From positions 8,680,001 through 8,744,000 of the forward strand of contig OZ024742.1 of assembly GCA_964016885.1 (NCBI GenBank): a DNA stretch of 64,000 nucleotides, read 5' to 3'. Each line of letters begins with the position of its first letter. Position 1 is the first letter of the stretch. This document shows positions 1 through 49,582 of the stretch, piece after piece. The notes below the pieces were generated by a model. The model was not told the origin of the DNA. It did not search any database and worked only from the letters and a program-made list of their open reading frames with translations. This stretch comes from Eledone cirrhosa (lineage: Eukaryota). The position numbers and the translations under genes were made by a program.

Positions 1-3000
1 CACTATCATCACCACCACCACCACTATCAACATCATCACCACCACTATCAACATCACCACCACCACTATCATCACCACCACCACTATCATCACCACCACC
101 ACCACTATCATCATCACCACCACCACTATCAACATCAACACCACCACTATCATCATCACCACCACCACTATCAACATCATCACCACCACTATCACCATCA
201 CCACCACCAATATCATCATCACCACCACCACTATCAACATCACCACCACCACTATCAACATCACCACCACCACTAACAACATCACCACCACCACCACTAT
301 CAACATCACCACCACCACTATCATCATCACCACCACCACTATCATCATCACCACCACCACTATCAACATCACCACCACCACTATCAACATCACCACCACC
401 ACTATCAACATCACCACCACCACTATCACCATCACCACCACCACTATCATCATCACCACCACCACTATCAACATCACCACCACCACTATCAACATCACCA
501 CCACCACTATCAACATCACCACCACCACTATCAACATCACCACCACCACTATCAACATCACCACCACCACTATCAACATCACCAACACGACTATCAACAT
601 CACCACCACCACTATCAACACCGACACCACCACTATCATCACAACCACCACTATCATCATCACCACCACTATCATCATCACCACCACCACTATCAACACC
701 ACCACCACCACTGTCATCACCACCACCACCACTATCAACATCACCACCACTATCAACATCACCACCACCACTATCATCATCACCACCACCACTATCATCA
801 TCACCAGCACCACTATCAACATCATCACCATCACTATCATCATCACCACCACCACTATCATCATCACCACCACCACTGTCATCATCACCACCACCACTAT
901 CAACATCATCACCATCACTATCATCATCACCACCACCACTATCATCATCATCACCACCACTATCAACATCACCACCACCACTATCATCATCACCACCACC
1001 ACTATCATCATCATCACCACCACTATCAACATCACCACCACCACTATCATCATCACCACCACCACTATCATCATCACCACCACCACTATCATCATCACCA
1101 CCACCACTATCATCATCACCAGCACCACTATCAACATCATCACCATCACTATCATCATCACCACCACCACTATCATCATCACCACCACCACTATCATCAT
1201 CACCACCACCACTATCAACACCACCACCACCATTATCAACATCACCACCACCACTATCATCATCACCACCACCACTATCAACACCACCACCACCATTATC
1301 AACATCACCACCACCACTATCATCATCACCACCACCACTATCATCATCACCACCACCACTATCATCATCACCACCACCACTATCAACATCACCACCACCA
1401 CTATCAACATCACCACCACCACTATCATCATCACCACCACCACTATCATCATCACCACCACTATCAACATCACCACCACCACTATCATCATCACCACCAC
1501 CACTATCATCATCACCACCACCACTATCAACACCACCACCACCATTATCAACATCACCACCACCACTATCATCATCACCACCACCACTATCAACACCACC
1601 ACCACCATTATCAACATCACCACCACCACTATCATCATCACCACCACCACTATCATCATCACCACCACCACTATCATCATCACCACCACCACTATCAACA
1701 TCACCACCACCACTATCAACATCACCACCACCACTATCATCATCACCACCACCACTATCATCATCACCACCACTATCAACATCACCACCACCACTATCAT
1801 CATCACCACCACCACTATCATCATCACCACCACTATCAACATCACCACCACCACTATCATCATCACCACCACTATCAACATCACCACCACTATCAACATC
1901 ACCACCACCACTATCATCATCACCAACACCACTATCATCATCACCACCACCACTATCAACATCACCACCACCACTATCATCATCATCACCACCACCACCA
2001 TTATCAACATCACCACCACCACTATCAACATCACCACCACCACTATCATCACCACCACCACCACTATCATCATCACCACCACCACCATCATCATCACCAC
2101 CACCACCATCATCATCATCACCACCACCACCATTATCAACATCACCACCACCACTATCAACATCACCACCACCACTATCATCACCACCACCACCACTATC
2201 ATCACCACCACCACCAATATCAACATCACCACCACCACTATCAACATCACCACCACCACTATCATCATCACCAACACCACTATCATCATCACCACCACCA
2301 CTATCAACATCACCACCACCACTATCATCATCATCACCACCACCACCATTATCAACATCACCACCACCACTATCAACATCACCACCACCACTATCATCAC
2401 CACCACCACCACTATCATCATCACCACCACCACTATCATCATCACCACCACCACCATCATCATCATCACCACCACCACCATTATCAACATCACCACCACC
2501 ACTATCAACATCACCACCACCACTATCATCACCACCACCACCACTATCATCACCACCACCACCAATATCAACATCACCACCACCACTATCAACATCACCA
2601 CAACCACTATCATCATCACCACCACCACTATCATCATCACCACCACCACTATCATCACCACCACCACCACTATCATCACCACCACCACCACTATCAACAT
2701 CACCACCACCACTATCAACATCACCACCACCACTATCAACATCACCACCACCACTATCATCATCACCACCACCACTATCATCATCACCACCACCACTATC
2801 ATCATCATCACCACCACCACCATTATCAACATCACCACCACCACTATCAACATCACCACCACCACTATCATCATCACCACCACCACTATCATCACCACCA
2901 CCACCACTATCATCACCACCACCACCACTATCATCACCACCACCACCACTATCAACATCACCACCACCACTATCAACATCACCACCACCACTATCAACAT

Positions 3001-6000
3001 CACCACCACCACTATCATCACCACCACCACCACTATCAACATCACCACCACCACTATCATCATCACCACCACCACTATCATCATCACCACCACCACTATC
3101 AACATCACCACCACCACTATCAACATCACCACCACCACTATCAACATCACCACCACAACTATCAACATCACCACCACCACTATCAACATCACCACCACCA
3201 CTATCATCATCATCATCACCACCACCACTATCATCATCACCACCACCACTATCAACATCACCACCACCACTATCAACATCACCACCACCACTATCATCAT
3301 CATCATCACCACCACCACTATCAACATCACCACCACCACTATCATCATCACCACCACCACTATCAACATCACCACCACCACTATCAACATCACCACCACC
3401 ACTATCATCATCACCACCACCACTATCATCATCACCACCACCACTATCATCATCATCATCACCACCACCACTATCAACATCACCACCACCACTATCAACA
3501 TCACCACCACCACTATCATCATCATCATCACCACCACCACTATCATCATCACCACCACCACTATCAACATCACCACCACCACTATCAACATCACCACCAC
3601 CACTATCATCATCATCATCACCACCACCACTATCAACATCACCACCACCACTATCAACATCACCACCACCACTATCATCATCACCACCACCACTATCAAC
3701 ATCACCACCACCACTATCAACATCACCACCACCACTATCATCATCACCACCACCACTATCAACATCACCACCACCACTATCATCATCATCACCACCACCA
3801 CCACTATCATCATCACCACCACCACTATCAACATCACCACCACCACTATCAACATCACCACCACCACTATCATCATCACCACCACCACTATCAACATCAC
3901 CACCACCACTATCAACATCACCACCACCACTATCAACATCACCACCACCACTATCAACATCACCACCACCACTATCATCATCACCACCACCACTATCATC
4001 ACCACCACCACCACTATCATCACCACCACCACCACTATCATCATCACCACCACCACTATCATCACCACCACCACCACTATCAACATCACCACCACCACTA
4101 TCATCATCACCAGCACCACTATCAACATCACCACCACCACTATCATCATCACCACCACCACTATCAACATCACCACCACCACTATCATCATCACCACCAC
4201 CACTATCAACATCACCACCACCACTATCATCATCACCACCACCACTATCAACATCACCACCACCACTATCAACATCACCACCACCACTATCAACATCACC
4301 ACCACCACTATCAACATCACCACCACCACTATCAACATCACCACCACCACTATCATCATCACCACCACCACTATCATCACCACCACCACCACTATCATCA
4401 CCACCACCACCACTATCATCATCACCACCACCACTATCATCACCACCACCACCACTATCAACATCACCACCACCACTATCATCACCACCACCACCACTAT
4501 CAACATCACCACCACCACTATCATCACCACCACCACCACTATCAACATCACCACCACCACTATCATCACCACCACCACCACTATCAACATCACCACCACC
4601 ACTATCATCATCACCACCACCACTATCATCACCACCACCACCACTATCATCACCACCACCACCACTATCATCACCACCACCACCACTATCATCACCACCA
4701 CCACTATCATCACCACCACCACTATCATCATCACCACCACCACTATCAGCACCACCACCACCACTATCATCACCACCACCACCACTATCTTCATCATCAC
4801 CACCACTATCAACATCACCACCACAACCACTATCATCATCACCACCACCACTATCATCACCACCACCACCACTATCATCACCACCAACACCACTATCATC
4901 ACCACCACCACCACTATCAACATCATCACCACCACTATCAACATCACCACCACCACTATCATCATCACCACCACCACTATCATCACCACCACCACTATCA
5001 TCATCACCACCACCACTATCAACATCACCACCACCACTATCAACATCACCACCACCACTATCATCATCACCACCACCACTATCATCATCACCACCACCAC
5101 TATCATCACCACCAACACCACTATCATCACCACCACCACCACTATCATCATCACCACCACCACTATCATCACCACCACCACTATCATCACCACCACCACC
5201 ACTATCATCACCACCACCACCACTATCATCACCACCACCACCACTATCATCATCACCACCACCACTATCATCACCACCACCACTATCATCATCACCACCA
5301 CCACTATTATCACCACCACCACTATCATCACCACCACCACCACTATCATCACCACCAACACCACTATCATCACCACCACCACCACTATCAACATCATCAC
5401 CACCACTATCAACATCACCACCACCACTATCATCACCACCACCACTATCATCACCACCACCACCACTATCATCATCACCACCACCACTATCAACATCAAC
5501 ACCACCACTATCATCATCACCACCACCACTATCAACATCATCACCACCACTATCACCATCACCACCACCAATATCATCATCACCACCACCACTATCAACA
5601 TCACCACCACCACTATCAACATCACCACCACCACTAACAACATCACCACCACCACCACTATCAACATCACCACCACCACTATCATCATCACCACCACCAC
5701 TATCATCATCACCACCACCACTATCAACATCACCACCACCACTATCAACATCACCACCACCACTATCAACATCACCACCACCACTATCACCATCACCACC
5801 ACCACTATCATCATCACCACCACCACTATCAACATCACCACCACCACTATCATCATCACCACCACCACTATCATCATCATCACCACCACTATCAACATCA
5901 CCACCACCACTATCAACATCACCACCACCACCACTATCAACATCACCACCACCACTATCAACATCACCACCACCACTATCAACATCACCACCACCACTAT

Positions 6001-6540
6001 CAACATCACCACCACCACTATTAACATCACCACCACTATCAACATCACCACCACCACTATCAACATCATCAGCACCACCACTATCATCACCACCACTATC
6101 AACATCACCACCACCACTATTAACACCACCACCACTATCAACATCACCACCACCACTATCATCACCACCACCACTATCAACATCACCACCACCACTATCA
6201 ACATCACCACCACCGCCACTATCAACATCACCACCACCACTATCATCACCATCACCACCACTATCATCACCACCACCACCACTATCATCACCACCACCAC
6301 TATCAACATCACCACCACCACCACTATCAACATCACCACCACCACTATCATCACCATCACCACCACTATCATCACCACCACCACCACTATCATCACCACC
6401 ACCACTATCATCAGCACCACCACCACTATCAACATCACCACCACCACTATCATCACCACCACCACCACTATCATCACCACCACCACTATCATCACCACCA
6501 CCACCACTATCAACATCATCACCACCAACATCATCATCAG
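1..6540. repeat. Degenerate ~21-bp minisatellite built from CAC/CAT/CAA/TAT triplets (consensus caccaccaccactatcaacat); runs off the left edge
   Basis: Continuous triplet-phased repeat, units mostly 18-24 bp. Confidence 0.97.
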
Positions 6541-17452: not shown

Positions 17453-19067
17453 TAAAACATGTCTATAGAATCACAAGATAAAATATATACCATTTCCTCT
17501 CCCAATTAACATAATTAACTATATAAAAAATCGAATAGACCAGGCTATAAGAATGAGGCTTCTATGAAGAATTCTCCAACAAATAACCGAAACTAGCCCT
17601 TCGAGTCGGCCGCAACGGAATATTTATCGAATATTTCGACAGCGTAATCGCCCAGATACAGTCAATTAAACAGAATTAGGTGTAAAATAAACTAGGAGAA
17701 AATAGAATACATTTAAATACCTCTACCATGGTTTCATCCGCATTTTGAGATTTCCAGTAATTATGTAATAATTATATAACTCGAGCATCGGATTCATCAG
17801 GAAATTTGCTCGGATCTAGACACTAAATTTTCCAAAGTGATCGCGCCAAGAATTCATTCAAAATGGCTAAGAATCGTGACGTAGTCGGGATCAGGTTGGA
17901 TGGGGTGTGGTAGTTGCTTACGACTGGTGGCTTTTTTGCTAGAAAGCACAGCACAATAGAGCCAAATTTGTATCTCAACCCAATGGGAGATTATTACATA
18001 TAAAGGTTTACATATATATATATATATACATATATATACATATACGTGTTTTGCAACGGGTCACTTTGTGGCTCAATGAAAATCTAATAAATTAAATAAT
18101 CAGAGCCATATATCATAAAACATGTCTATAGAATCACAAGATAAAATATATACCATTTCCTCTCCCAATTAGCATAATTAACTATATAAAAAATTCGATT
18201 TTTTATATAGTTAATTATGCTAAATGGTATATATTTTATCTTGTTATTATTATGCTAAATGATATATATTTTATCTTGTCATTCTATAGACATGTTTTAT
18301 GATATATGGCTCTGATTATTTAATTTATTAAATTTTCATTGAGCCACAAAGTGACCCGTTGCAAAACACGTATACGTATATATATGTGTATATATATGTA
18401 AATCTTTATATATAATAATCTCCCATTGGGTTGAGATACAAATTTGGCAGTATTGTGCTGTGCTTTCTAGCAAAAAAGCCACCAGTTGTAAGCAACTACC
18501 ACACCCCTTCCAACCTGATCCCGACTACGTCACGATTCTCAGCCATTTTGAATGAATTCTTGGCGCGATCACTTTGGAAAATTTAGTGTCTAGATCAGAG
18601 CAAATCTCCTGATGAATCCGATGCTCGAGTTATATAATTATTACATAATTATTGGAAATCTCAAAATGCGGACGAAACCATGGTAGAGGTATTTAAATGT
18701 ATTCTATTTTCTCCTAGTTTATTTTACACCTAATTCTGTTTAATTGACTGTATCTGGGCGATTACGCCGTCGAAATATTCAATAAATATTCCGCTGCGGC
18801 CGACGGGAAGGGCTAGTTTCGGTTATTTGTTGGAGATTTCTTCATATAATCCTCATTCTTATAGCCTGGTCTATTCGATTTTTTATATAGTTAATTATGC
18901 TAATTGGGAGAGGAAATGGTATATATTTTATCTTGTGATTCTATAGACATGTTTTATGATATATGGCTCTGATTATTTAATTAATTAAACTTTCATTGAG
19001 CCACAAAGTGACCCGCTGCAATACACGTATATGTATATATATGTATATATGTATATATATATGTAAA

Positions 19068-21094: not shown

Positions 21095-21344
21095 CCTTAA
21101 ACTTGAATCTGTTCTTTCAACCTGTTATTTTTCTCTAAAACCTTTTCCAATTCCACCTTTCCCGTACCTTTAATCTTTCCAATTAATCATTCTTTCTTCT
21201 GATGAAGGATTAGCGCCCGAAACGTTAAAACCCTTTTCCTGCTATTTCAAGCGTTAACCTAATATATTCCTTCCATACTGTACTGATTGTGTTGTTTACA
21301 TTTTTAAATACATGCATGCATACATACATACATACATACATACA

Positions 21345-21950
21345 TGGTGGCTGCCAACTCGTTTTCGAGTACGGCCACTACTTTATATCCCTGTAGGAGA
21401 ACCCCTACCGATGCGCTGAACGAGTGTGACTTTTGAGTCCAGCCAGCGACTTGAAAACTCTGGTACAAACACTATACCTGTGACAATTATTGACACATAG
21501 TGCTGGGCCCATGGTACCATGTGAAGACAAGTGCAGAGAGATCTCCAGATATAAAGCAATGCCTGTGCCGTGAAGCTTTTATAGTGAGCAAAGGCACTGC
21601 ACAAAGCCAGTCCCACTCTCTTAACCAAGATGATATTTACCAAAAAGAAGAACAAGTCAACATCATTGGATACCATCAGGGTTGCAGGTGTTATATCAGA
21701 GCTTTCCTTCTACTAGAATTCTGCCTTGACAAAGGCTAAGGGGTCATTATCTCCCGGTGATTTTGGATGGCCATTGACTCTTAAGAGCTCCTTTGCCCTT
21801 TGACAGGTTTTGTTTTTAGTCTTGCAGGATGTCCAAAGTCACCCTTCTCACCAAGAAACCTTGGTGGGGTTGCCAGTTTAGTCGCCAACGACCCGACCAC
21901 GAGACAGGTTGTACTGGAATACGTTACCAGTAGCACCAACTGGTGACCTG
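21345..21950 (-). mobile_element. Non-autonomous RTE-derived element, family A, copy 1 (~605 bp)
   Basis: Its 3' ~175 bp match the RTE zinc-finger and tail at 30437-30614. The rest resembles an RTE 5' UTR. Flanked by (TACA)n. Confidence 0.75.
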
Positions 21951-22040
21951 ACACATACATACATACAAACATACATACAAACATACATACATATATACAT
22001 ACATACATACATACATACATACATACATACATACATACAT

Positions 22041-22315
22041 GATGATGACTGTCCCCTCGTTATCGAGTATGGCCATTGCACGATATACCATTATTAATAA
22101 TTATTAATATCATGTAATGCCTGTGCGTGAAGATATTTTTTAAAGTGAACGACAGTAGCTATAACCCGAATAGAAGAAAAGATCAACATCATCGGTAACT
22201 ACTGAGCCGTAGGTTTTATGTCGGAGTTATCCCAGTTTCCTGAGTTGTCTTCTCCTAGAAGAATGCCCTGACAAATGCTAGGGGTTCTTCACTCCCAGTG
22301 GTCTAACCGCGCGGT
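22041..22315 (-). mobile_element. Non-autonomous RTE-derived element, family B, copy 1
   Basis: Tail tggccatactcgataacgagggg.cag.catcatc is shared with 28865-28902; the body is homologous to family A. Confidence 0.7.
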
Positions 22316-22373
22316 ACATACATACATACATACATACATACATACATACATACATACATACATACATACATAC

Positions 22374-22930
22374 ATGGTGGCTGCCAACTCGTTTTCGAGT
22401 ACGGCCACTACTTTATATACATGTAGGAGAACCCCTACCGATGCGCTGAACGAGTGTGACTTTTGAGTCCAGCCAGCGACTTGAAAACTCTGGTACAAAC
22501 ACTACACTTGTGACAATTATTGACACATAGTGCTGGGCCCATGGTACCATGTGACGACAAGTGCAGAGAGATCTCCAGATATAAAGCAATGCCTGTGCCG
22601 TGAAGCTTTTATAGTGAGCAAAGGCACTGCACAAAGCCAGTCCCACTCTCTTAACCAAGATGATATTTACCAAAAAGAAGAACAAGTCAACATCATTGGA
22701 TACCATCAGGGTTGCAGGTGTTATATCAGAGTTTTCCTTCTCCTAGAATTCTGCCTTGACAAAGGCTAAGGGGTCATCTCTCCCGGTGATTTTGGATGGC
22801 CATTGACTCTTAAGAGCTCCTTTGCCCTTTGACAGGTTTTGTTTTTAGTCCTGCAGGATGTCCAAAGTCACCCTTCTCACCAAGAAAACTTGGTGGGGTT
22901 GCCAGTTTAGTCGCCAACGACCCGACCATG
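22374..22930 (-). mobile_element. Family A copy 2 (5' truncated)
   Basis: Near-identical to the corresponding part of copy 1. Confidence 0.8.
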
Positions 22931-22949
22931 TACATACATACATACATAC

Positions 22950-23340
22950 AGATCTCCAGATATAAAGCAATGCCTGTGCCATGAAGCTTTTATAGTGAAC
23001 AAAGGACTGCACAAAGCCAGTCCCACTCCCTTAAACAAGATGATATTTACCAAAAAGAAGAACAAGTCAACATCATTGGATACAATCAGAGTTGCAGGTG
23101 TTATATCAGAGTTTTCCTTCTCCTAGAACTCTGCCTTGACAAAAGCCATGGGGTCATCTCTCCCGGTGATTTTGGATGGCCATTGACTCCCAAGAGCTCC
23201 CTCGACCCCTGACAGGCCCCGGCCCTAGCCCCGCAGGATGTTCAAAGTCACCCCCCCCCCACCAAGAAACCTTGGTGGGGTTGCCAGTTTAGTCGCCAAC
23301 AACCCGACCATGGGACAGGTTGTACTGGGATACATGTTAC
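22950..23340 (-). mobile_element. Family A copy 3 (partial, hypermutated)
   Basis: Aligns to copy 2, with a T-to-C cluster at 23190-23260. Confidence 0.8.
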
Positions 23341-23366
23341 ATATACATACATACATACATATATAT

Positions 23367-23722
23367 GATGATGATGGCTGCCCCCTCGTTATCGAGTATG
23401 GCCATTGCAGATATACCATTATTAAAATGTATTAATTAATTCTATCGTGCAATGCCTGTGCGTGAAGATATTTTTTAAAGTGAGGAAAGACTGTGCACAG
23501 AGCCAATCCCATTCTCTGTGCGACAGTAGTTATAACCTGAAAAGAAGAAAAGATCAACATCATCGGTAACTACTCAGCCGCAGGTTTTATATAGGAGTTA
23601 TCCCAGTTTCCTGAGTTGCCTTCTCCTAGAAGAATGCCCTGACAAAAGTTAGGGGACCTTCACTCCCAGTGGTTTAACCGCGCGATCTGGTGTCAAGCCT
23701 GACTATTTCTGTGTCCCCGCGC
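23367..23722 (-). mobile_element. Family B copy 2
   Basis: Aligns to 22041-22315 and carries an extra internal segment. Confidence 0.72.
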
Positions 23723-24003
23723 ATATACATACACATGCAATACACATATACATATACATACATATGCAGCGGGCGAGGAGGGCGACCCTGGACACCCCGA
23801 AGGACAAAAAACAATACCTGACAAAGGGCGGAAGAACCCACAAGAGCCAACGGCCATCCAAAAATGTGTACATATTTATATACACACACACACACATATA
23901 TATATATATACATACATACATACACAAATATACATACATATATACACACATATACATATACATACATACATACATACATACACATATATACATACATATA
24001 TAT

Positions 24004-24607
24004 ATGGTGGCTGCCAACTCGTTTTCGAGTACGGCCACTACTTTATATGTAGGAGAACCCCTACCGATGCGCTGAACGAGTGTGACTTCTTAGTCCAGCC
24101 AGCGACTTGAAAACTCTCGTACAAACACTACACTTGTGACAATTATTGACACATACTGCTGGGTGCATGGTACCATGTGATGACAAGTGCAGAGAGATCT
24201 CCAGATATAAAGCAATGCCTGTGCCGTGAAGCTTTTATAGTGAGAAAAGGCACTGCACAAAGCCAGTCCCACTCTCTTAACCAAGATGATATTTACCAAA
24301 AAGAAGAACAAATCAACATCATTGGATACCATCAGGGTTGCAGGTGTTATATCAGAGTTTTCCTTCTCCCAGAATTCTGCCTTGACAAGGCTAAGGGGTC
24401 ATCTCTCCCGGTGATTTTGGATGGCCATTGACTCTTAAGAGCTCCTTTGCCCTTTGACAGGTTTTGTTTTTAGTCCTGCAGGATGTCCAAAGTCACCCTC
24501 CTCACCAAGAAACCTTGGTGGGGTTGTCAGTTTAGTCGCCAACGACTCGACCATGAGACAGGTTGTACTGGGATACATGTTACCAGTAGCACCAACTGGT
24601 GACCTGA
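24004..24607 (-). mobile_element. Family A copy 4
   Basis: Full-length match to 21345-21950. Confidence 0.8.
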
Positions 24608-25297
24608 CATAAACATATATATATATACATACATACATACACACACATACATACATACATATATACATATATATATACATACATACACACACACATACAT
24701 ACACACATATACATACATATATATATATATTATCAATATATATACATACACATACACATATATACATATATATATATGTATTATAAATATATATACACAC
24801 ATCATACATACACATATATATACATACATTATACATACTTACACATATATACATATACATACATACACATATACATATACATACATACACATATACATAT
24901 ACATACATACATACACATATATACATACATACATACACATATACATTCATACACATATACATTCATGCACATATACATTCATACACATATATACATACAT
25001 ACACATATACATTCATACACATATACATTCATACACATACATACATACACATATATAGATACATGCATACACATATATACATACATACATACACATATAT
25101 ACATACATACATACATACACATATATACATACATACACATATATACATACATACATACACATACACATACATACACATATTTATATATACATACATACAC
25201 ATATATACATATGTATATATATACATACATATATATATATATATACACATATATATATATACACATACATATATATATACATATATACATACACACA

Positions 25298-28200
25298 TAT
25301 GAACAATCTGAATCCCAAAAGTTCGGTTTTATGCAAAGGCTAAAAACTTTATGGAACTCAAAACACCCAGAATTAGACTTTTCTCCAAAGCATTTAAATG
25401 AACAGGCAAAACGTATCATTAGATGTAAATTGATACATCTAACGGAATTGAGTGATTCTACAAATACAGCCCTTGTAGACAACCACCCCACCTCCACTGA
25501 CAGACAAAGAGAATGGCCAGCTAAATCTAACTGAACAGCCCACCAACAATTTTGCTGAAATCCATCCCACTTCCACTGAAGAACAGCGAGAAAGGTCAGC
25601 TAACTCTAGTAGTAATTGTCACCACATCAACAACGAGGCTGAAATTCATGACTCTACTGAACAAACAGAGCACCAAAAACTTGTGGACACCCTACAAGTG
25701 ATATGGAACGATATGTTTCAAGAGATGCACAGCCTAAATGTGAGTGACAGACCATACAACACCAGAATCAGTAAAGAACCCACTAAATTGGAATTGGAAG
25801 TGGTGAACGAAATAGCTGGCAATTATCTGAAGGCTATACGATCTAAAGGTGTAGAAACGACATTTGAAACGCTTAATGTTTTGTTATATGTTTCAGCTGT
25901 CACATTGCTATCATATAACACACATCTAAAACCACGCAATCAAGATACAAACAGAAAGCCTGAACCAGCGTGGATGCGAAATTTAAAAACCAAAATTTTG
26001 TCCCTGAGACGAAGTTTCTCACACATCGCAGTCGTTATGAAATGCAACATAGAGAGCAACTTCACACGACACCAGGAAGACCTAAAGAAAAAGTTAGAGA
26101 GACGATTTGGAGATACAAAATTTAAAACTTTGAACTCCAAATTACACCAGTTGAAACAACAACTCACAGCTACAACAGAAAGACTAAAATATAAGTCAAC
26201 AGCTCATAAACGACAAGTGCTAAATAGATTGTTTGCCAGAGATCCTAAATCAGTTTATCGCAGCTTCGGTGGCAAAAGCTCAATCCCTGTAAACGACACC
26301 CCTTCAAAAGAACAGGTTGAGAGCTACTGGAGATCTGTATGGGAAACGTATGACGGATTCAACAGATAAGCTAATTGGCTAAAAGAACTGGAACAGGATT
26401 ACTGCCAACATGTCCAGATTAAACAATATGACATAGATGGGTCAATACTGGAAATAGCTCTACAGAAAATGTCGAATAGGAAATCGTCAGGCCCAGACCT
26501 CATTACAGGATACTGGTTGAAGAGTTTCACTTTCTATCGGCAAGATCTCATACGGCTGTTTACAGAAACCATTAAAGGCACACAAGAACTGCCCAGATGG
26601 TTATTAACTGCCACTATTCTCCTCATTCCCCAAAATAGCCAAACCACCCTTGCTAAAAATTACCGCCCAATAGCCTGCCAAAACATCATGTAGAAATTAT
26701 ATACTGGGTGCCTTAACCTGTTCTTACAGGATCACTGTGCTACCAACAACATCATAACACCTGAGCAAGCTGGTGGAAAGAGGGAGGTGTGGGGTTGCAT
26801 AGATCACCTACTAACTAACAAAATGATTCAGGAAAAAACAACAAAGAATCGCAGAAACATGACTGGTGTGGCTGAACTATCAAAAAGCATTTGATAGTGT
26901 ACCTCATGGGTGGATTATTAAGGCTTTATAGTTAGCTAATGTCCCACAACCATTGGTAGCTGCTGTTGAACGCCTGACCAAGAACTGGTACACCAATTTG
27001 ATCCTTAGAGGTGATAAGGAGCAAGTTAAGACTGATAAGATACATTACCAGAAGGGCATCTTTCAGGGTGATAGCTTGTCAGTGCTACTCTTCGTTCTCT
27101 CACTGAATCCACTATCTTACCTACTCAGGAAACAGGGTGGACAAAGAAGTGGGCCCAGAAGTATCTCCCATCTTTTCTTTGTTGATGACCTGAAGTTGTA
27201 TGGGCCAAATATCAATGACATCAAGAAACAATTGGACCTCATTACACTATTTACAACCGACATCAAAATGAAATTTGGTGAGTCCAAGTGTGCATATTTG
27301 GCAATAAAACGTGGAAGAGCTGTGCCCTCCTCTAGAAATCTAGAGATGAACGGCCTGACAATACAATCTCTGCAGTCAGGTGACAACTACAGATATCTTG
27401 GACAGGATGAGAATGTCAGATATGATGGACCCATAAATAAGGAGAGAACCAGAACTGAATACCTCAGAAGAGTAAAGAAAATATGGTCATCAGAACTGTC
27501 AGCATACAACAAATACATTGCCCACAATACTTATGCTGTGCCAATTCTAACGCCAACATTTGGCCTGCTGAACTGGTCATTGCAAGAACTAAGTGAGATG
27601 GATGTTAGAACTCGAAAACTTCTCAGTGTTACTGGGAACTTTAACATCAATGGTGATGTGGATAGGCTATACTTCTCACGCAAGGAAGGTGGCCGGGGTC
27701 TAAAATCAATATTAACAACATATGAGACCCGGATAGTAACACTGAAGCAACACCTTCAACAGAGGAAAAAGGTTGGCAACCATCTTGTCCAGGTTTATGA
27801 GCATGAAAAAAAAAAATGTCATTAGAATAGCGACTGATCTGGAGGAGAGATATGGAATAAAGCCTGATATAAATCTCTCACCCAGAGAAATCGGAAGATC
27901 CTATTCAATGTTCAAACAAGATGAAAAAAAAATTGACCAATTTACAGAAAAAGTTGTGCATGGATACTTGAGGCGTAAAACACAGACCATAGAGGGATAA
28001 ACCACTCAAAAATCTGGCATGGAGTTCCGACAAGTTTATGACATCACACCTTGAGTGATATCTCTATGCAATACAGGAACAAGAACTCCCTACCAAATAT
28101 CTGCTGCACAAAAGAGGAGGACCAGCAGCTGACAATAAATGTAGGCTATGTAAAACAAAGATCGAGGATGTAAGCCACATTGTTGCCAGCTGCGAAAGAA

Positions 28201-28790
28201 TGTCATCTCGCTACTACCTCCCCATGAGACACGATGGGATAGCTAGAACCATCTGGAACGCACTTCGGAAAACAAAATTAACAACAAACGAGGAGGAATA
28301 TATAGAGACAGATGGCACTAAGGAATACTGGTGGAACCTGAAAATAAAAACTGCCACCAAATTAAAGCACAACCGGCCTGATATTGTTGTTTGGGACCAC
28401 ACATTGAAAACGTGTTCTGTTGTGGAGATCAGCTGCCTACTTGATGTAAACGTTGTCAGAAAAATACAGGAGAAGGAGGACATCTATGGACCATTGATGA
28501 GGAGTTTACAAATCCAGTATCCAAGATACACCTTTAGCTTCATACCCATCATTATTGGAGCTACGGGTTATATACCAACCCGTTTGGACCAAAGTATGAC
28601 TGAACTTGGATTTGCGGACAAAAAGCGCAGCTCCCTAATTCATAGTCTACAAATGGCTGCGATAGCTGGCACCTTCAAAATTTGCAAAACATTCTTTTGA
28701 TTCAAGGGATGACAATTTCTTTTCTTTTACAACCTTGCCACCAGGAAGGTGGCCGGTCAAAAAAATATACTCGAAATTAAGAGAAAGAGA
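25298..28790 (+). mobile_element. R4/Dong-type non-LTR retrotransposon (RT plus restriction-like endonuclease), decayed
   Basis: KSSGPDLITGYWLK, NYRPIAC, GIFQGDSLS, HLFFVDDLKLY, YRYLG, GGRGL; CRLC..H....C knuckle; RHD, HNRPDIVV, VVEISC and KEDIY. Flanked by CATA-rich microsatellite. Confidence 0.9.
25301..28700 (+). pseudogene. Single RT-RLE polyprotein ORF broken by stops and frameshifts
   Basis: Fragments 25683-26369, 26469-26693, 26953-27825, 27773-28000 and 28200-28700 are collinear. Confidence 0.9.
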
Positions 28791-28864
28791 TATACATACA
28801 TACATACATACATACATAAATACATACGTACATACATACATACATACATACATACATACATACA

Positions 28865-29880
28865 TGATGGCTGCCCCCTCGTTATCGAGTATGGCCATTG
28901 CACGAGAAAAAAAACCATAATAATAACAAAAATAATAATAATGATTTCATTTATTGGCCACAAGGGCCGACATCTCTGGGACTAACAACAATAATAATAA
29001 TGACAAGAACAACAACAATAATAATATACATATTTATATATACACACACACGCATACACATAAACATATCTACACACACACGATAGCAATTAACAGTGCT
29101 GCGATCGAATATGGCTTTTTAGCCCAGCCAATGATCTAAAATGTCTTGCACAGAGTCGGCAACCAAAGCATTCACTGGGAATAGCTGTCTGTGGTTGGAG
29201 TTCGTGTACTCTTGCATGTCGTTTGAGCCCTCCTGCTGATTTACATTCTCTACCACATGTTTGGCAAGCATGATGAGTAGCATCTCCAACAGCAGTCTGG
29301 TAGTCAACCACTGGTCTTACTTTATGACTGCGAAGATGACTTTCGAGTCCAGCTTTGCTTAGGCAGAGTCTCGCACATAGAAGGACCTTCGCCGTCTGGA
29401 AATGCAACAGCAATGTCCTTCCTCACATCCCGCTTTACTTTCTCGTATGCGATTCGAGATGCCTCAAAGGCAACTTTCCCCTCATATACAGTCTTTCTCC
29501 ATTTATTACGATCAGCAGCAACATTTTCCCATGTATCAGCAGAGATGTTAGCGTCTTTCAAAGAGGCTTTCAAGGAATCCTTATACCTCTTCTTTGGTTT
29601 ATGTGGCGGTCGTTTTCCTTTAACCAACTCTCCATAAAAGAGATGTTTTGGTATTCTAGAATCCTTCATCCTGGCAATGTGACCACTCCAACGGAGTCCT
29701 TGCTTAAGTACAAGATCTTCTATACTGTCACACAGAGAGCTTTCCAAAATCTCGACATCACTTATGTGGTCCCTCCAGTGAACGCCATGGATCCGTCTGA
29801 GACACATCTGATGGAAACGCTCCAATTGCTTAAGGTGGTGTCGATATGTGACCCAGATCTCGCAGGCATAAAGAAGAGAA
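28865..29880 (-). mobile_element. RTE-clade LINE 3' fragment with three C2H2 zinc fingers; tail displaced by a microsatellite insertion
   Basis: LLYACEIW..LERFHQMCLRRI..W..LRWSGHIARM..RIPKHLFYGEL..GKR..PKKRYKD..W..A.DR..WR, then CQTCGRECKSAGGLKRHARVH and CRLCARHFRSLAGLKSHIRSQH; tail at 28865-28902. Confidence 0.9.
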
Positions 29881-30276
29881 TACATACATATATATATGTA
29901 TGTATGTTCTTCTGGTTTTATAATTTCACAAATTTTTACCAATAGAGAGAGTCGGTTTCTAACATAGACACAAGACTCTCTCATTGGAATTTACACATCA
30001 ACTAGGTGGATTATGTCTGCATGTCTGCATATGTAGATATGGATGCTATTGTATGTGTGGATGTGTATGTTTTGAGTTGTATATGTTCATGTGTATATGC
30101 TTTGTATCTGTACATGTGTATATATGCAGTTATTAGATGCAATATTTTTGGAATGTTTTACATATTTTTACTGTTCCATTAATGGATTGTACTTGTAATT
30201 TCCTAACTAGTTGTGTTTGTATGTACGTACGTATGTATGTATACATATATATGTATGTATACATATGTATATGTAA

Positions 30277-30614
30277 TAGGGTTTGTCTGAGCATGGCAGG
30301 TCTAAAGAGTCACCTGAGAGTGCACAAGAACAGGGAAGCAGGCACCTGTGGAGCTATAAGTTTCATCAGACGACGACATGTTATCTTTGTGGAAGGGTAT
30401 GCAGGTCGAGTAGTGATCTCACACGACACCTTCGATCACGTGGTACCATGGGCCCAGCACTAGGAGTCAATAATTGTCACAAGTGTAGTGTTTGTACCAG
30501 AGTTTTCAAGTCGTTGGCTGGGTTAAAAAACCACACTCGTTCAGCGCATCGGTAGGGGTCTCCTACATGGATATAAAGTAGTGGCCGTATTCGAAAACGA
30601 GTTGGCAGCCACCA
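30277..30614 (+). mobile_element. 3' end of a second RTE family (zinc fingers plus tail)
   Basis: RVCLSMAGLKSHLRVH, CYLCGRVCRSSSDLTRHLRS, CSVCTRVFKSLAGLKNHTRSAH*; tail tggccgtattcgaaaacgagttggcagccaccatg followed by TATG-rich repeat. Confidence 0.8.
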
Positions 30615-31444
30615 TGTATATATGTATATATGTAGGCATGCACGTATGTATATTTGTTGGCATGTATGTATGTATGTATGCATGTGTGTATGAATGTTTG
30701 TCTTTCTCTCTCTCTATATATATATACGTATGCATGTATGTATGTATATTTTCTCTTCTTTATGGTGGTGTCAGAGATAATTTTGACCGGCCCCATGTTC
30801 TAGGCAACGTTGTAAAGAAAATATTAGTTTTAAATATGAAAGTGTCTTGTTTATTGTCTGTGTGTATGTGTTTGAGTGTATGTGTATATGTTATATGTCT
30901 GTGTATGTGTCACAATCTCTGTCTGTGTATGTGTCACTGTCTCTGTATGTGTATATGTGTGTGATTGTTTGCGTAGTCAGTTGCTCATTAAAACTTTGGA
31001 AGGTCTTGTAAATATTTATGGTCCTAGTTACTGTGATCAGCTGTCGTGTACAAATGGATACTACTACTATGCACACATACACAGCAACACACACTCACAC
31101 ACACATACACACACACACACATACACCCACACACCCACACACACACACACACACACATACACACTCACATACATACTCACACACAGACACACACACGCAT
31201 ACAAACACACATACGCATACACACACACACACACAACCACACACATACCCACACCCCCACTCACACACACCCATACACACACACTCACACACACACACAT
31301 ACACATACACTCACACACCCATACACACATACACACACATACACACACGCACATACACACGCACACACTGACATACACAGAGACACACACACATACACAC
31401 ACATACACACACATACACACACACGCAGACACACAGACAGACAA

Positions 31445-34265: not shown

Positions 34266-37262
34266 GAACAATAACAACAATAACAACAATGACAACAATA
34301 ACAACAATGACAAAAATGACAACAGTAAGAACAATAACAACAATGACAACAATGACAACAATAACAACAATAACAACAATGACAGCAATAACAACTGTAA
34401 GAACAATAACAACAATGACAACAATGACAACAGTAAGAACAATAAAAACAATAACAACAATGACAACAATAACAACAATAACAACAATGACAACAATAAC
34501 AACAGTAAGAACAATAACAACACTAACAACAATAACAACAATAACAACAGTAAGAACAATAACAACAATAACAACAATGACAGCAATAACAACTGTAAGA
34601 ACAATAACAACAATGACAACAATGACAACAGTAAGAACAATAAAAACAATAACAACAATGACAACAATAACAACAATAACAACAATGACAACAATAACAA
34701 CAGTAAGAACAATAACAACAATAACAACAATGACAGCAATAACAACTGTAAGAACAATAACAACAATGACAACAATGACAACAGTAAGAACAATAAAAAA
34801 CAATAACAACAGTAAGAACAATAACAACAATAACAACAGTGACAAAAATGACAACAATGACAACAATGACAACAATAACAACTGTAAGAACAATAACAAC
34901 AATGACAACAATGACAACAGTAAGAACAATAAAAACAATAACAACAGTAAGAACAATAACAACAATAACAACAATGACAACAATGACAACAATAACAACA
35001 ATAACAACAGTAAGAACAATAACAACAATAACAACAGTAAGAACAATAACAACAATAACAACAATAACAACATTAAGAACAATGACAACAATAACAACAA
35101 TAACAACAATGACAACAATAACAACAATGACAACAATAACAACAATAACAACAATGACAGCAATAACAACTGTAAGAACAATAACAACAATAACAACAGT
35201 AAGAACAATAACAACAATGACAACAATAACAACAATAACAACAATAACAACAGTAAGAACAATAACAACAATAACAACAATAACAACAATAACAACAGTA
35301 AGAACAATAACAACAATGACAACAGTAAGAACAATGACAACACTAACAACAATAACAACAATAACAACAGTAAGAACAATAACAACAATGACAACAATAA
35401 CAACAATAACAACAATAACAACAGTAAGAACAATAACAACAATAACAACAATAACAACAATAACAACAGTAAGAACAATAACAACAATGACAACAGTAAG
35501 AACAATGACAACACTAACAACAATAACAACAATAACAACAGTAAGAACAATAACAACACTAACAACAATAACAACAATGACAACAGTAAGAACAATAACA
35601 ACAATGACAACAGTAAGAACAATGACAACACTAACAACAATAACAACAATGACAACAGTAAGAACAATAACAACACTAACAACAATAACAACAATAACAA
35701 CAGTAAGAACAATAACAACAATGACAACAATAACAACAATAACAACAATAACAACAGTAAGAACAATAACAACAATAACAACAATAACAACAATAACAAC
35801 AGTAAGAACAATAACAACAATGACAACAGTAAGAACAATGACAACACTAACAACAATAACAACAATAACAACAGTAAGAACAATAACAACAATGACAACA
35901 GTAAGAACAATAACAACAATGACAACAGTAAGAACAATGACAACACTAACAACAATAACAACAATGACAACAGTAAGAACAATAACAACACTAACAACAA
36001 TAACAACAATAACAACAGTAAGAACAATAACAACAATGACAACAGTAAGAACAATGACAACACTAACAACAATAACAACAATAACAACAGTAAGAACAAT
36101 AACAACAATAACAACAATAACAACATTAAGAACAATAACAACACTAACAACAATAACAACAATAACAACAGTAAGAACAATAACAACAATAACAACAATA
36201 ACAACATTAAGAACAATAACAACACTAACAACAATAACAACAATAACAACAGTAAGAACAATAACAACAATGACAACAGTAAGAACAATGACAACACTAA
36301 CAACAATAACAACAATAACAACAGTAAGAACAATAACAACACTAACAACAATAACAACAATAACAACAGTAAGAACAATAACAACAATGACAACAGTAAG
36401 AACAATGACAACACTAACAACAATAACAACAATAACAACAGTAAGAACAATAACAACACTAACAACAATAACAACAATGACAACAGTAAGAACAATAACA
36501 ACAATGACAACAGTAAGAACAATGACAACACTAACAACAATAACAACAATGACAACAATGACAACAATAACAACAATGACAACACTAACAACAATAACAA
36601 CAATGACAACAGTAAGAACAATAACAACAATAACAACAATAACAACAATAACAACAGTAAGAACAATAACAACAATGACAACAGTAAGAACAATGACAAC
36701 ACTAACAACAATAACAACAATGACAACAGTAAGAACAATGACAACACTAACAACAATAACAACAATGACAACAGTAAGAACAATGACAACACTAACAACA
36801 ATAACAACAATGACAACAGTAAGAACAATAACAACACTAACAACAATAACAACAATGACAACAGTAAGAACAATAACAACAATAACAACAATAACAACAA
36901 TAACAACATTAAGAACAATAACAACAATAACAACAATAACAACAGTAAGAACAATAACAACAATAACAAAAATGACAACAGTAAGAACAATAACAACAAT
37001 AACAACAATAACAACAATAACAACAATAACAACAGTAAGAACAATAACAACAACAATAACAACAATAATAACAACAACAACAATGACAACAATAACAACA
37101 ACAAGAACAATGGCAATAATAACAACAACAACAACAATGACAACAATAACAACAGCAACAACAATGACAACAATAACAACAACAACAACAACAATAACAA
37201 AAATAATAACAATAAGAACAACAACAACAAAAGTAACAACAGTAACAACAATAACAATAACA
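34266..37262. repeat. 9-bp-unit array (aacaacaat with gac/aag/agt/act variants)
   Basis: Directly visible; it produces the spurious 800-1000 aa ORFs. Confidence 0.96.
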
Positions 37263-44100: not shown

Positions 44101-44105
<5 letters not shown>

Positions 44106-47100
44106 GATTTAATGCTCTGAGATAGCGATATATATGTGAAGACAAACATAGAATATTCGAAAATATTCTGTATGTTTATAATAAACATTTTGAAGACCTA
44201 ATCGCTATAGAATAGAATACGTCACGTATTACAATTTGAGATTCTCGATAAAAGCAAGGGAAGTAACCTACGCGTTTCATTCTTATTAGAAATCATCAGG
44301 ATTACATATCCAATGCTTTTATCGAGAATGACAGGAGCTAGAGACTTATAGAATACTTAGCTGTGTACATGAACTGGTTTGAAAGAGCAGTAGTCGGTCC
44401 GGCAGAAATTAGAATTTGGATTTAATGCTCTGAAATAGCGATATATATGTGAAGACAAACATAGAATATTCGAAAATATTCTGTATGTTTATAATAAACA
44501 TTTTGAAGACCTAATCGCTATAGAATAGAATACGTCACGTATTATAATTTGAGATTCTCGATAAAAGCAAGGGAAGTAACCTACGCGTTTCATTCTTATT
44601 AGAAATCATCAGGATTACATACCCAATGCTTTTATCGAGAATGACACAGCTAGAGACTTATAGAATACTTAGCTGTGTACATGAACTGGTTTGAAAGAGC
44701 AGTAGTCGGTCCGGCAGAAATTAGAATTTGGATTTAATGCTCTGAAATAGCGATATATATGTGAAGACAAACATAGAATATTCGAAAATATTCTGTATGT
44801 TTATAATAAACATTTTGAAGACCTAATCGCTATAGAATAGAATACGTCACGTATTATAATTTGAGATTCTCGATAAAAGCAAGGGAAGTAACCTACGCGT
44901 TTCATTCTTATTAGAAATCATCAGGATTACATACCCAATGCTTTTATCGAGAATGACACAGCTAGAGACTTATAGAATACTTAGCTGTGTACATGAACTG
45001 GTTTGAAAGAGCAGTAGTCGGTCCGGCAGAAATTAGAATTTGGATTTAATGCTCTGAAATAGCGATATATATGTGAAGACAAACATAGAATATTCGAAAA
45101 TATTCTGTATGTTTATAATAAACATTTTGAAGACCTAATCGCTATAGAATAGAATACGTCACGTATTACAATTTGAGATTCTCGATAAAAGCAAGGGAAG
45201 TAACCTACGCGTTTCATTCTTATTAGAAATCATCAGGATTACATATCCAATGCTTTTATCGAGAATGACACAGCTAGAGACTTATAGAATACTTAGCTGT
45301 GTACATGAACTGGTTTGAAAGAGCAGTAGTCGGTCCGGCAGAAATTAGAATTTGGATTTAATGCTCTGAAATAGCGATATATATGTGAAGACAAACATAG
45401 AATATTCGAAAATATTTTGTATGTTTATAATAAACATTTTGAAGACCTAATCGCTATAGAATAGAATACGTCACGTATTACAATTTGAGATTCTCGATAA
45501 AAGCAAGGGAAGTAACCTACGCGTTTCATTCTTATTAGAAATCATCAGGATTACATATCCAATGCTTTTATCGAGAATGACAGGAGCTAGAGACTTATAG
45601 AATACTTAGCTGTGTACATGAACTGGTTTGAAAGAGCAGTAGTCGGTCCGGCAGAAATTAGAATTTGGATTTAATGCCCTGAAATAGCGATATATATGTG
45701 AAGACAAACATAGAATATTCGAAAATATTCTGTATGTTTATAATAAACATTTTGAAGACCTAATCGCTATAGAATAGAATACGTCACGTATTACAATTTG
45801 AGATTCTCGATAAAAGCAAGGGAAGTAATCTACGCGTTTCATTCTTATTAGAAATCATCAGGATTACATATCCAATGCTTTTATCGAGAATGACACAGCT
45901 AGAGACTTATAGAATACTTAGCTGTGTACATGAACTGGTTTGAAAGAGCAGTAGTCGGTCCGGCAGAAATTAGAATTTGGATTTAATGCTCTGAAATAGC
46001 GATATATATGTGAAGACAAACATAGAATATTCGAAAATATTCTGTATGTTTATAATAAACATTTTGAAGACCTAATCGCTATAGAATAGAATACGTCACG
46101 TATTACAATTTGAGATTCTCGATAAAAGCAAGGGAAGTAACCTACGCGTTTCATTCTTATTAGAAATCATCAGGATTACATATCCAATGCTTTTATCGAG
46201 AATGACACAGCTAGAGACTTATAGAATACTTAGCTGTGTACATGAACTGGTTTGAAAGAGCAGTAGTCGGTCCGGCAGAAATTAGAATTTGGATTTAATG
46301 CTCTGAAATAGCGATATATATGTGAAGACAAACATAGAATATTCGAAAATATTCTGTATGTTTATAATAAACATTTTGAAGACCTAATCGCTATAGAATA
46401 GAATACGTCACGTATTACAATTTGAGATTCTCGATAAAAGCAAGGGAAGTAACCTACGCGTTTCATTCTTATTAGAAATCATCAGGATTACATATCCAAT
46501 GCTTTTATCGAGAATGACACAGCTAGAGACTTATAGAATACTTAGCTGTGTACATGAACTGGTCTGAAAGAGCAGTAGTCGTTCCGGCAGAAATTAGAAT
46601 TTGGATTTAATGCTCTGAAATAGCGATATATATGTGAAGACAAACATAGAATATTCGAAAATATTCTGTATGTTTATAATAAACATTTTGAAGACCTAAT
46701 CGCTATAGAATAGAATACGTCACGTATTACAATTTGAGATTCTCGATAAAAGCAAGGGAAGTAACCTACGCGTTTCATTCTTATTAGAAATCATCAGGAT
46801 TACATATCCAATGCTTTTATCGAGAATGACACAGCTAGAGACTTATAGAATACTTAGCTGTGTACATGAACTGGTTTGAAAGAGCAGTAGTCGGTCCGGC
46901 AGAAATTAGAATTTGGATTTAATGCTCTGAAATAGCGATATATATGTGAAGACAAACATAGAATATTCGAAAATATTCTGTATGTTTATAATAAACATTT
47001 TGAAGACCTAATCGCTATAGAATAGAATACGTCACGTATTACAATTTGAGATTCTCGATAAAAGCAAGGGAAGTAACCTACGCGTTTCATTCTTATTAGA

Positions 47101-49350
47101 AATCATCAGGATTACATATCCAATGCTTTTATCGAGAATGACACAGCTAGAGACTTATAGAGTACTTAGCTGTGTACATGAACTGGTTTGAAAGAGCAGT
47201 AGTCGGTCCGGCAGAAATTAGAATTTGGATTTAATGCTCTGAAATAGCGATATATATGTGAAGACAAACATAGAATATTCGAAAATATTCTGTATGTTTA
47301 TAATAAACATTTTGAAGACCTAATCGCTATAGAATAGAATACGTCACGTATTACAATTTGAGATTCTCGATAAAAGCAAGGGAAGTAACCTACGCGTTTC
47401 ATTCTTATTAGAAATCATCAGGATTACATATCCAATGCTTTTATCGAGAATGACACAGCTAGAAACTTATAGAATACTTAGCTGTGTACATGAACTGGTT
47501 TGAAAGAGCAGTAGTCGGTCCGGCAGAAATTAGAATTTGGATTTAATGCTCTGAAATAGCGATATATATGTGAAGACAAACATAGAATATTCGAAAATAT
47601 TCTGTATGTTTATAATAAACATTTTGAAGACCTAATCGCTATAGAATAGAATACGTCACGTATTACAATTTGAGATTCTCGATAAAAGCAAGGGAAGTAA
47701 CCTACGCGTTTCATTCTTATTAGAAATCATCAGGATTACATATCCAATGCTTTTATCGAGAATGACACAGCTAGAGACTTATAGAATACTTAGCTGTGTA
47801 CATGAACTGGTTTGAAAGAGCAGTAGTCGGTCCGGCAGAAATTAGAATTTGGATTTAATGCTCTGAAATAGCGATATATATGTGAAGACAAACATAGAAT
47901 ATTCGAAAATATTCTGTATGTTTATAATAAACATTTTGAAGACCTAATCGCTATAGAATAGAATACGTCACGTATTACAATTTGAGATTCTCGATAAAAG
48001 CAAGGGAAGTAACCTACGCGTTTCATTCTTATTAGAAATCATCAGGATTACATATCCAATGCTTTTATCGAGAATGACACAGCTAGAGACTTATAGAGTA
48101 CTTAGCTGTGTACATGAACTGGTTTGAAAGAGCAGTAGTCGGTCCGGCAGAAATTAGAATTTGGATTTAATGCTCTGAAATAGCGATATATATGTGAAGA
48201 CAAACATAGAATATTCGAAAATATTCTGTATGTTTATAATAAACATTTTGAAGACCTAATCGCTATAGAATAGAATACGTCACGTATTACAATTTGAGAT
48301 TCTCGATAAAAGCAAGGGAAGTAACCTACGCGTTTCATTCTTATTAGAAATCATCAGGATTACATATCCAATGCTTTTATCGAGAATGACACAGCTAGAA
48401 ACTTATAGAATACTTAGCTGTGTACATGAACTGGTTTGAAAGAGCAGTAGTCGGTCCGGCAGAAATTAGAATTTGGATTTAATGCTCTGAAATAGCGATA
48501 TATATGTGAAGACAAACATAGAATATTCGAAAATATTCTGTATGTTTATAATAAACATTTTGAAGACCTAATCGCTATAGAATAGAATACGTCACGTATT
48601 ACAATTTGAGATTCTCGATAAAAGCAAGGGAAGTAACCTACGCGTTTCATTCTTATTAGAAATCATCAGGATTACATATCCAATGCTTTTATCGAGAATG
48701 ACACAGCTAGAGACTTATAGAATACTTAGCTGTGTACATGAACTGGTCTGAAAGAGCAGTAGTCGTTCCGGCAGAAATTAGAATTTGGATTTAATGCTCT
48801 GAAATAGCGATATATATGTGAAGACAAACATAGAATATTCGAAAATATTCTGTATGTTTATAATAAACATTTTGAAGACCTAATCGCTATAGAATAGAAT
48901 ACGTCACGTATTACAATTTGAGATTCTCGATAAAAGCAAGGGAAGTAACCTACGCGTTTCATTCTTATTAGAAATCATCAGGATTACATATCCAATGCTT
49001 TTATCGAGAATGACACAGCTAGAGACTTATAGAATACTTAGCTGTGTACATGAACTGGTTTGAAAGAGCAGTAGTCGGTCCGGCAGAAATTAGAATTTGG
49101 ATTTAATGCTCTGAAATAGCGATATATATGTGAAGACAAACATAGAATATTCGAAAATATTCTGTATGTTTATAATAAACATTTTGAAGACCTAATCGCT
49201 ATAGAATAGAATACGTCACGTATTACAATTTGAGATTCTCGATAAAAGCAAGGGAAGTAACCTACGCGTTTCATTCTTATTAGAAATCATCAGGATTACA
49301 TATCCAATGCTTTTATCGAGAATGACACAGCTAGAGACTTATAGAATACT
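44101..49350 (-). repeat. 312-bp tandem array, 17 units (last one partial), each encoding a type I hammerhead ribozyme
   Basis: Unit starts: 44101, 44414, 44726, 45038, 45350, 45663, 45975, 46287, 46599, 46911, 47223, 47535, 47847, 48159, 48471, 48783, 49095. Confidence 0.97.
44241..44329 (-). ncRNA. Type I hammerhead ribozyme in unit 1, repeated in all 17 units
   Basis: Minus strand: attctcgataaaagca ttggatat gtaatc CTGATGA t ttct aata agaa t GAAAC gc GTA ggttac ttccct tgcttttatcgagaat. Predicted cleavage between 44269 and 44268. Confidence 0.85.
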
Positions 49351-49582
49351 TTGGACTTGACTCGCTCTTCCTCACTTTTCGTTGCTTCACCATCCTTGTT
49401 TGTTTACTTTGTCGCTGTTCCCTTTATTTATATGTCCCAACGACTTTCTTTAGCCGTTGCTTGCACCAACCGGAGGTATATGGTCTTTAAAGCGAAGAAA
49501 TACCGATGATGGTTGGAAGATCACTGTTTAAGGACCACTTTATTCATATGTAACCCATTTGCAACTCCGCAGCACGTTTATT

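Follow-up and report, generated by a model that had tools for sequence, protein, structure and literature searches.

How could one copy of an interspersed repeat come to carry a dense cluster of T-to-C changes? The question is raised by a 64,000-nt stretch of the Eledone cirrhosa genome (the window; contig C3 of the 3.0-Gb assembly that we searched), in which a ~610-nt repeat, family A, is present four times amid (ATAC)n microsatellites at 21344-24612 (Table 1). An earlier note on this DNA attributed the cluster, located in the third copy, to A-to-I editing of a transcript that was then reverse-transcribed into the germline. A-to-I editing is usually treated as a change of RNA that leaves DNA alone. 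We find clusters that are one-stranded, of one class, depleted of a 5′ G and provided with a duplex partner, and these observations support the proposal: reverse transcription of an ADAR-hyper-edited retroposon RNA into germline DNA is the best explanation of the assembled sequence and, in our judgement, very probably the right one.

The T-to-C cluster in its composite element

At least 15,386 family A copies match a T/C-tolerant probe of the cluster zone. The 3′ 177 nt of the family recur in a longer copy, at 30280-30615, with a frame that codes for C2H2 zinc fingers, and the tails are (TATG)n; tail and common 3′ segment together support the minus-strand orientation that had been assigned to the element. 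As the sense of family A is on the minus strand, T>C on the plus strand is A>G in RNA sense. The 5′ part of family A may derive from an RTE-clade LINE, namely from its 5′ UTR. Like the bipartite non-autonomous RTE elements and RTE-derived SINEs described by Kojima (PMC5786205) and in PMC6007223, family A is short and combines the 3′ end of a LINE with a microsatellite tail, and in those elements a 5′ domain is common to several families, as it is to families A and B here. An active RTE LINE has been reported in octopus (PMC9115989).

Table 1. Features of the family A locus (window coordinates)
Feature	Coordinates	Strand	Remarks
Copy 1, family A	21344..21953	-	unedited: 3 T>C among 11 substitutions
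Copy 2, family A	22374..22930	-	5′-truncated, unedited: 0 T>C among 3 substitutions
Copy 3, family A	22951..23340	-	lacks the family's last ~190 nt; short (TATG)n in their place
Duplex arm 1 (predicted), within copy 3	23168..23262	-	15/31 ancestral T sites to C on plus strand; 0/17 A sites to G
Duplex loop (predicted)	23341..23766	-	microsatellite linker and 3′ body of related family-B element; junctions as in L062 and L063
Family-B 5′ piece, inverted in place	23767..23885	+	inversion common to L062 only
Duplex arm 2 (predicted)	23767..23863	+	10/14 ancestral T sites to C on plus strand; 0/38 A sites to G
Microsatellite like L062 flank, split by copy 4	23886..25300		tentatively a co-copied flank
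Copy 4, family A	24004..24612	-	unedited: 2 T>C among 11 substitutions

Copy 3 forms part of a composite (22951-23885) that consists of the A copy, a microsatellite, a family-B element and an inverted family-B 5′ piece. Compared with copy 2, it has between 23189 and 23262 a total of 18 T>C, one C>A, one T>G, one C>T and a 2-base C insertion, which agrees with the earlier count of about 18 T-to-C changes and three other substitutions. Three of the 18 T>C are not private to copy 3: the C at 23229 is common to copy 3 and two other loci, L062 and L063, the C at 23208 is common to copy 3 and L062, and at 23257 the T is a variant of copies 1 and 2. The remaining 15 are private (arm 1 in Table 1). 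The description of the flanks as nearly unchanged is roughly right, with private substitutions in 9/217 columns to the left and 6/504 to the right, and it missed a second T>C cluster at 23767-23847, where 10 of 14 T sites are changed. Of 513 candidates 40 were scored, and the C-rich haplotype of copy 3 is unique among them; the closest of the others reaches 83%. As read from the assembly, the copy 3 cluster is real and far beyond chance.

Two details accompany the clusters. A C run at 23251-23259, arising after T>C changes, is longer by 2 bases, which reflects either a homopolymer error or post-insertion slippage. Within the edited T runs of both arms there are T>G changes, at 23222 and 23771 (A>C in RNA sense); possibly the reverse transcriptase misread inosine at these sites, or C>G changes followed later.

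The sister locus and the predicted duplex

A search with 23640-23875 found the whole stretch at one other place, locus L062 on contig C1 (90%); at the other scored loci the second part lies on the opposite strand. L062 has the same composite as the window, with the 5′ piece of B inverted in place and the far 5′ end of B missing, and at L063 (contig C4) the A+B junctions are identical and the inversion is absent. No unique flank is common to the window and L062 over 20 kb around L062, so the window composite is a mobile copy, and a segmental duplication is ruled out. The microsatellite to the right of the inversion resembles the L062 flank: two rare words are shared with L062 only, and the alignment with L062 scores 273, whereas the highest score at 100 other loci is 258. 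This resemblance hints that L062 is the source of the window composite rather than its sibling.

The window and L062 differ at 64 of 933 aligned columns. Polarised by L063 and by family majorities, 46 differences are private to the window, 17 are private to L062 and one is ambiguous. The 46 window changes include 29 T>C and no A>G; the 17 L062 changes include no T>C. With T>C set aside, each branch carries 17 private substitutions (1.8%). Three window changes are of A>C type in RNA sense (23222, 23771, 23429), and the APOBEC3-type sense G>A (plus-strand C>T) accounts for 1 of the 46.

These junctions bear on the idea that copy 3 is simply a diverged member of a C-rich subfamily, or a product of slippage between T runs and C runs. 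Several changes do fall in T runs beside C runs, and there is the 2-base C insertion. All diagnostic junctions, in contrast, tie copy 3 to the T-bearing L062 and L063, the haplotype has no second copy among the 40 scored candidates, and isolated sites and the second arm are changed too. The subfamily is largely refuted on these grounds, and we give the idea as a whole almost no credence.

Between the inverted B piece and the 5′ domain of A the complementarity is 77-86%, and it lies exactly at the cluster. For the minus-strand RNA of L062 a duplex of ~95 bp is predicted (z=-12.8, 0/20 shuffles as good), and the predicted duplex persists in the window RNA (z=-8.7, 0/20 shuffles as good), with energies of -133 kcal/mol for L062 and -125 kcal/mol for the window. 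The intrinsic hairpin of family A RNA, judged from the fold alone and not against shuffles, has only short stems in the cluster zone. The T>C changes follow the duplex closely. Pooled over both arms they affect 25/45 T sites against 4/208 outside (Fisher p=2e-18, arm limits set by the BLAST overlap, arms 500 nt apart across a 504-nt loop), the latter comprising 1/142 between the arms and 3/57 to the left; with wider, fold-derived arm limits the counts are 28/99 and 2/154 (p=6e-11). The changes in arm 2 are antisense to the B element, yet they lie on the same RNA strand as those in arm 1, which matches editing of one folded transcript. The earlier suggestion to look for a double-stranded segment thus led to an inverted partner, in a predicted fold, that is itself changed on the same strand as arm 1. 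A long duplex with edits in both arms is, on the predicted fold, found for the window copy; for the other edited copies described below it is assumed.

Beside arm 2, in a (CA/TA) microsatellite at 23886-23900 that self-pairs in the fold, the window has C where L062 has T. This segment may have been edited too, with slippage as a confounding process.

Hypermutated relatives and neighbour preference

We searched for further copies with probes that demanded at least two of four T>C within a T run, placed in the 5′ zone and in the middle zone of the family. They gave 5 and 7 matches, respectively (raw hit counts). Eight further copies at seven loci carry 10-48 T>C, three more carry 7, and each has 0-1 A>G; two to four of the T>C in these whole-copy counts are forced by the probe. 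The counts are 20 at L100, 10 at L101, 15 at L111, 48 at L114, 21 at L115, 37 at L112 with 14 in its tandem neighbour, 18 at L116 with 7 in the neighbour, and 7 at each of L113 and L117; L099 (5) and L103 (3) are unremarkable. Two opposite-strand probes of the same design gave 1 and 2 matches (raw hit counts), with 2-4 A>G per copy, and an exact doublet probe on the opposite strand gave none. A G>A control probe gave 26 matches (raw hit count); the 20 examined carry 2-9 G>A, and none is hyper-mutated. In the assembly copies, then, the T>C clusters occur in one orientation and one substitution class, as the proposal had predicted.

A general strand bias of the family was considered and rejected: no more than 4 T>C occur in any of 81 copies chosen with queries free of T>C, and an apparent excess of T>C over A>G (62:28) disappears when singletons are counted (26:26). 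Nor are the edits confined to the 5′ domain, since changes in other copies span positions 5 to 529. Edit patterns overlap in part between copies and almost no other changes are common to them, so the copies look like separate events. Re-amplification of one edited master is not supported by the patterns; the probes themselves account in part for the sites in common, at 230-235 and 459-462. At L112 (1273-2139) and L116 (1276-2260), neighbouring family A copies are both T>C-rich, which suggests edited tandem dimers copied as one RNA. L100 (1045-1657) carries 20 T>C, of which 11 coincide in site with those of copy 3, as do two further variants, and it lacks two markers of the L062 lineage; it is the same hotspot in a copy that probably has a different source.

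No inverted partner for the edited zone lies within 1.5 kb (L111-L117) or within ~10 kb on each side (L100, L101, L033). Editing before insertion is thus indicated, which weighs against a conversion in place. By that account an unedited composite arrived, its RNA was edited on the spot and a cDNA then replaced the local sequence; alternatively, the DNA was itself the target of a deaminase. RNA of the window locus is likewise predicted to fold into the duplex, and the equal private divergence of the two branches (17 and 17) gives no date for the edits. However, a cDNA strand edited in an RNA:DNA hybrid should show the opposite polarity, and a DNA cruciform should be changed on both strands. We regard conversion in place as quite unlikely and retain editing of the RNA before insertion.

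The neighbours of the changed sites were compared with the preference of ADAR, for which a deficit of upstream G and an excess of downstream G have been reported (PMC3197674). Adenosines with a 5′ G are spared within the cluster spans of the window, L100, L101 and L033 (4/18 edited vs 54/84, p=0.0015) and again in a second set of nine copies at L111-L117 (12/78 vs 162/446, p=0.0002); in the window alone the depletion is not significant (4/9 edited; p=0.42 in a separate count). Depletion in two pooled sets, as the earlier note had proposed to seek, agrees with the reported upstream deficit, and 5′ A and U are favoured at edited sites. On the 3′ side, G is edited at 15/26 and 49/139 sites, close to 3′ A and C, and only 3′ U is low, so that the reported downstream excess is not clear in these copies. 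Three sequence marks of ADAR hyper-editing are thus seen: one-class A>G on the RNA strand, changes in both arms of the putative duplex of the window copy and, in the pooled sets, depletion of 5′ G.

Deaminase domains (PF02137) are encoded at four loci of the genome, of which those on C1 and C25 are multi-exon; PF02137 also occurs in ADAT and ADAD proteins. At C6:13644405-13646174 (L105/L106) the domain lies in a 700-aa open frame and is matched in two pieces only.

A burst of reverse-transcriptase errors, with C placed opposite template A under an imbalanced nucleotide pool and no editing enzyme involved, would likewise leave changes of one class on one strand from a single event per copy, and the three A>C-type changes indicate that other errors do occur. 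Such a burst would have no reason to track pairing partners or to avoid a 5′ G, and it would have to break off across the 504-nt loop and start again in arm 2; we consider it highly improbable.

The changes might also be an artefact of the assembly, written in by consensus error in a hairpin-prone region or by polishing with RNA-derived reads. Clusters of same-type mismatches can be sequencing error, as reported for G-to-A in Sanger traces (PMC2873906), and the inverted repeat stands in place in the window, so that its own RNA could be edited. In public reads (4 of 19 runs) the family is present at great depth, and none of the pieces or variant rows listed carries the C haplotype across the cluster; the best share of copy 3 words in a run is 0.35, against 0.33 expected from family-shared words, so the four runs probably lack the window locus. 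The more stable predicted duplex of L062, in contrast, is accompanied by no such changes, and eight further hypermutated copies lack a partner nearby. An error in reading a hairpin should be mirrored between the strands, pairing T>C in one arm with A>G in its partner, whereas T>C is seen in both; the neighbour preference, moreover, recurs across loci. An artefact is in our view very unlikely, and we proceed with the edited-RNA reading.

Proposed route, precedents and genomic setting

The composite without the inversion, a tandem of A and B, exists at L063. At L062 the 5′ piece of B is inverted and the far 5′ end of B lost, an arrangement that twin priming is known to leave in LINEs; here too it could have arisen in that way at insertion. 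The inversion would then face the related 5′ domain of A and fold the L062 RNA into the predicted duplex. ADAR would have deaminated more than half of the adenosines in both arms of a read-through L062 RNA, and reverse transcription, reading I as G, would have yielded the copy inserted on C3, with an age of ~1.8% divergence per branch. Germline fixation of the edited copy was likely achieved by a LINE reverse transcriptase. The other hyper-mutated copies likely arose in the same way, each from an RNA paired with something not inserted alongside it, such as an antisense transcript or an upstream inverted copy.

As a germline retrocopy, the composite has an unedited source elsewhere and homology limited to the mobile unit. 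Counted against this are the absent 3′ end of copy 3 (Table 1), as target-primed reverse transcription normally needs the 3′ end of the element, and the target-site duplication, none being seen by eye at the composite, whose ends lie within microsatellite. In a cell-culture study L1 RNA was not edited by ADAR1, with rare editing allowed for (PMC5224506).

The nearest precedents are the scars of APOBEC3 DNA editing fixed in LTR retrotransposons and endogenous retroviruses (Knisbacher and Levanon, PMC4866542; Zaranek et al., PMC2873906, in which A-to-G/T-to-C clusters in retrotransposon traces serve as a comparison class). There, as here, a deaminase acts on a retroelement in transit and leaves a dense, strand-biased cluster of one class that is recognised against an unedited relative. 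The APOBEC3 scars as reported are G-to-A from C-to-U on cDNA, in vertebrate LTR elements with invertebrates as negative control, whereas the window copy shows A-to-G in RNA sense, belongs to a non-LTR retroposon and is changed only in the duplex arms. The window copy does not fit APOBEC3 editing, either in substrate or in the sense of the change, A>G, with a single sense G>A among the window-private changes. The ultra- or hyper-edited ADAR targets of Carmi et al. (PMC3197674) are alike in their dense A-to-G in repeat duplexes, their deficit of upstream G and their ~20 or more sites per molecule; those are differences between RNA and genome, whereas the window changes are part of the assembled genome and their unedited source lies at another locus.

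Retroviral proviruses with A-to-G hypermutation, for which a dsRNA deaminase has been held responsible, likewise derive from edited RNAs that were reverse-transcribed and integrated. They arose in somatic or cultured-cell virus infections, whereas the window copy belongs to a host retroposon family in the germline. In titles and the opening lines of abstracts, mostly outside subscription journals, we found no ADAR-edited non-LTR copies fixed in a germline. Set beside the APOBEC scars documented in vertebrate LTR elements, germline fossils of RNA edits in non-LTR elements may therefore be new.

On balance we favour, with some reserve, a wider reading: ADAR would act here as a recurring heritable mutagen of the germline, hyper-edited retroposon RNAs would reinsert with sufficient frequency to make up a recognisable class of genomic fossils, and the window would preserve a complete pedigree, in which a 5′ inversion, an accident of retrotransposition, created the duplex that led to editing of the next copy. 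If true, such fossils document, with dates and from DNA alone, how active and how specific ADAR has been in the germline. A pair of source and copy with both arms changed on one strand is about the strongest sequence evidence possible for RNA edits reaching heritable DNA. The effect is rare, with about a dozen copies found by two probes in a family of >15,000. The question can be tested with existing assemblies, by counting one-stranded A>G clusters per family and dating them in lineages of high and low editing.

The surroundings of the locus are rich in LINE remains and repeats. A broken LINE on the plus strand (25301-28800, several frames) starts where the long microsatellite ends and matches RVT_1 at 26932-27822 and zf-RVT at 28059-28697. 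Two LINE 3′ fragments at 29090-29990 and 30280-30615 lie head to head, both ending in C2H2 zinc fingers; the latter, with the last 177 nt of family A, may mark the autonomous partner of the family. A 221-aa LINE-like frame at 29322-29987 received no Pfam name. Tandem arrays occupy 1-6539 (period 21), 34267-37257 (9/27), 44101-49351 (312) and 51727-54025 (57 nt). A 183-nt inverted repeat at 18012-19060, its arms 97% complementary and 683 nt apart, contains internal direct duplications and is possibly a MITE.
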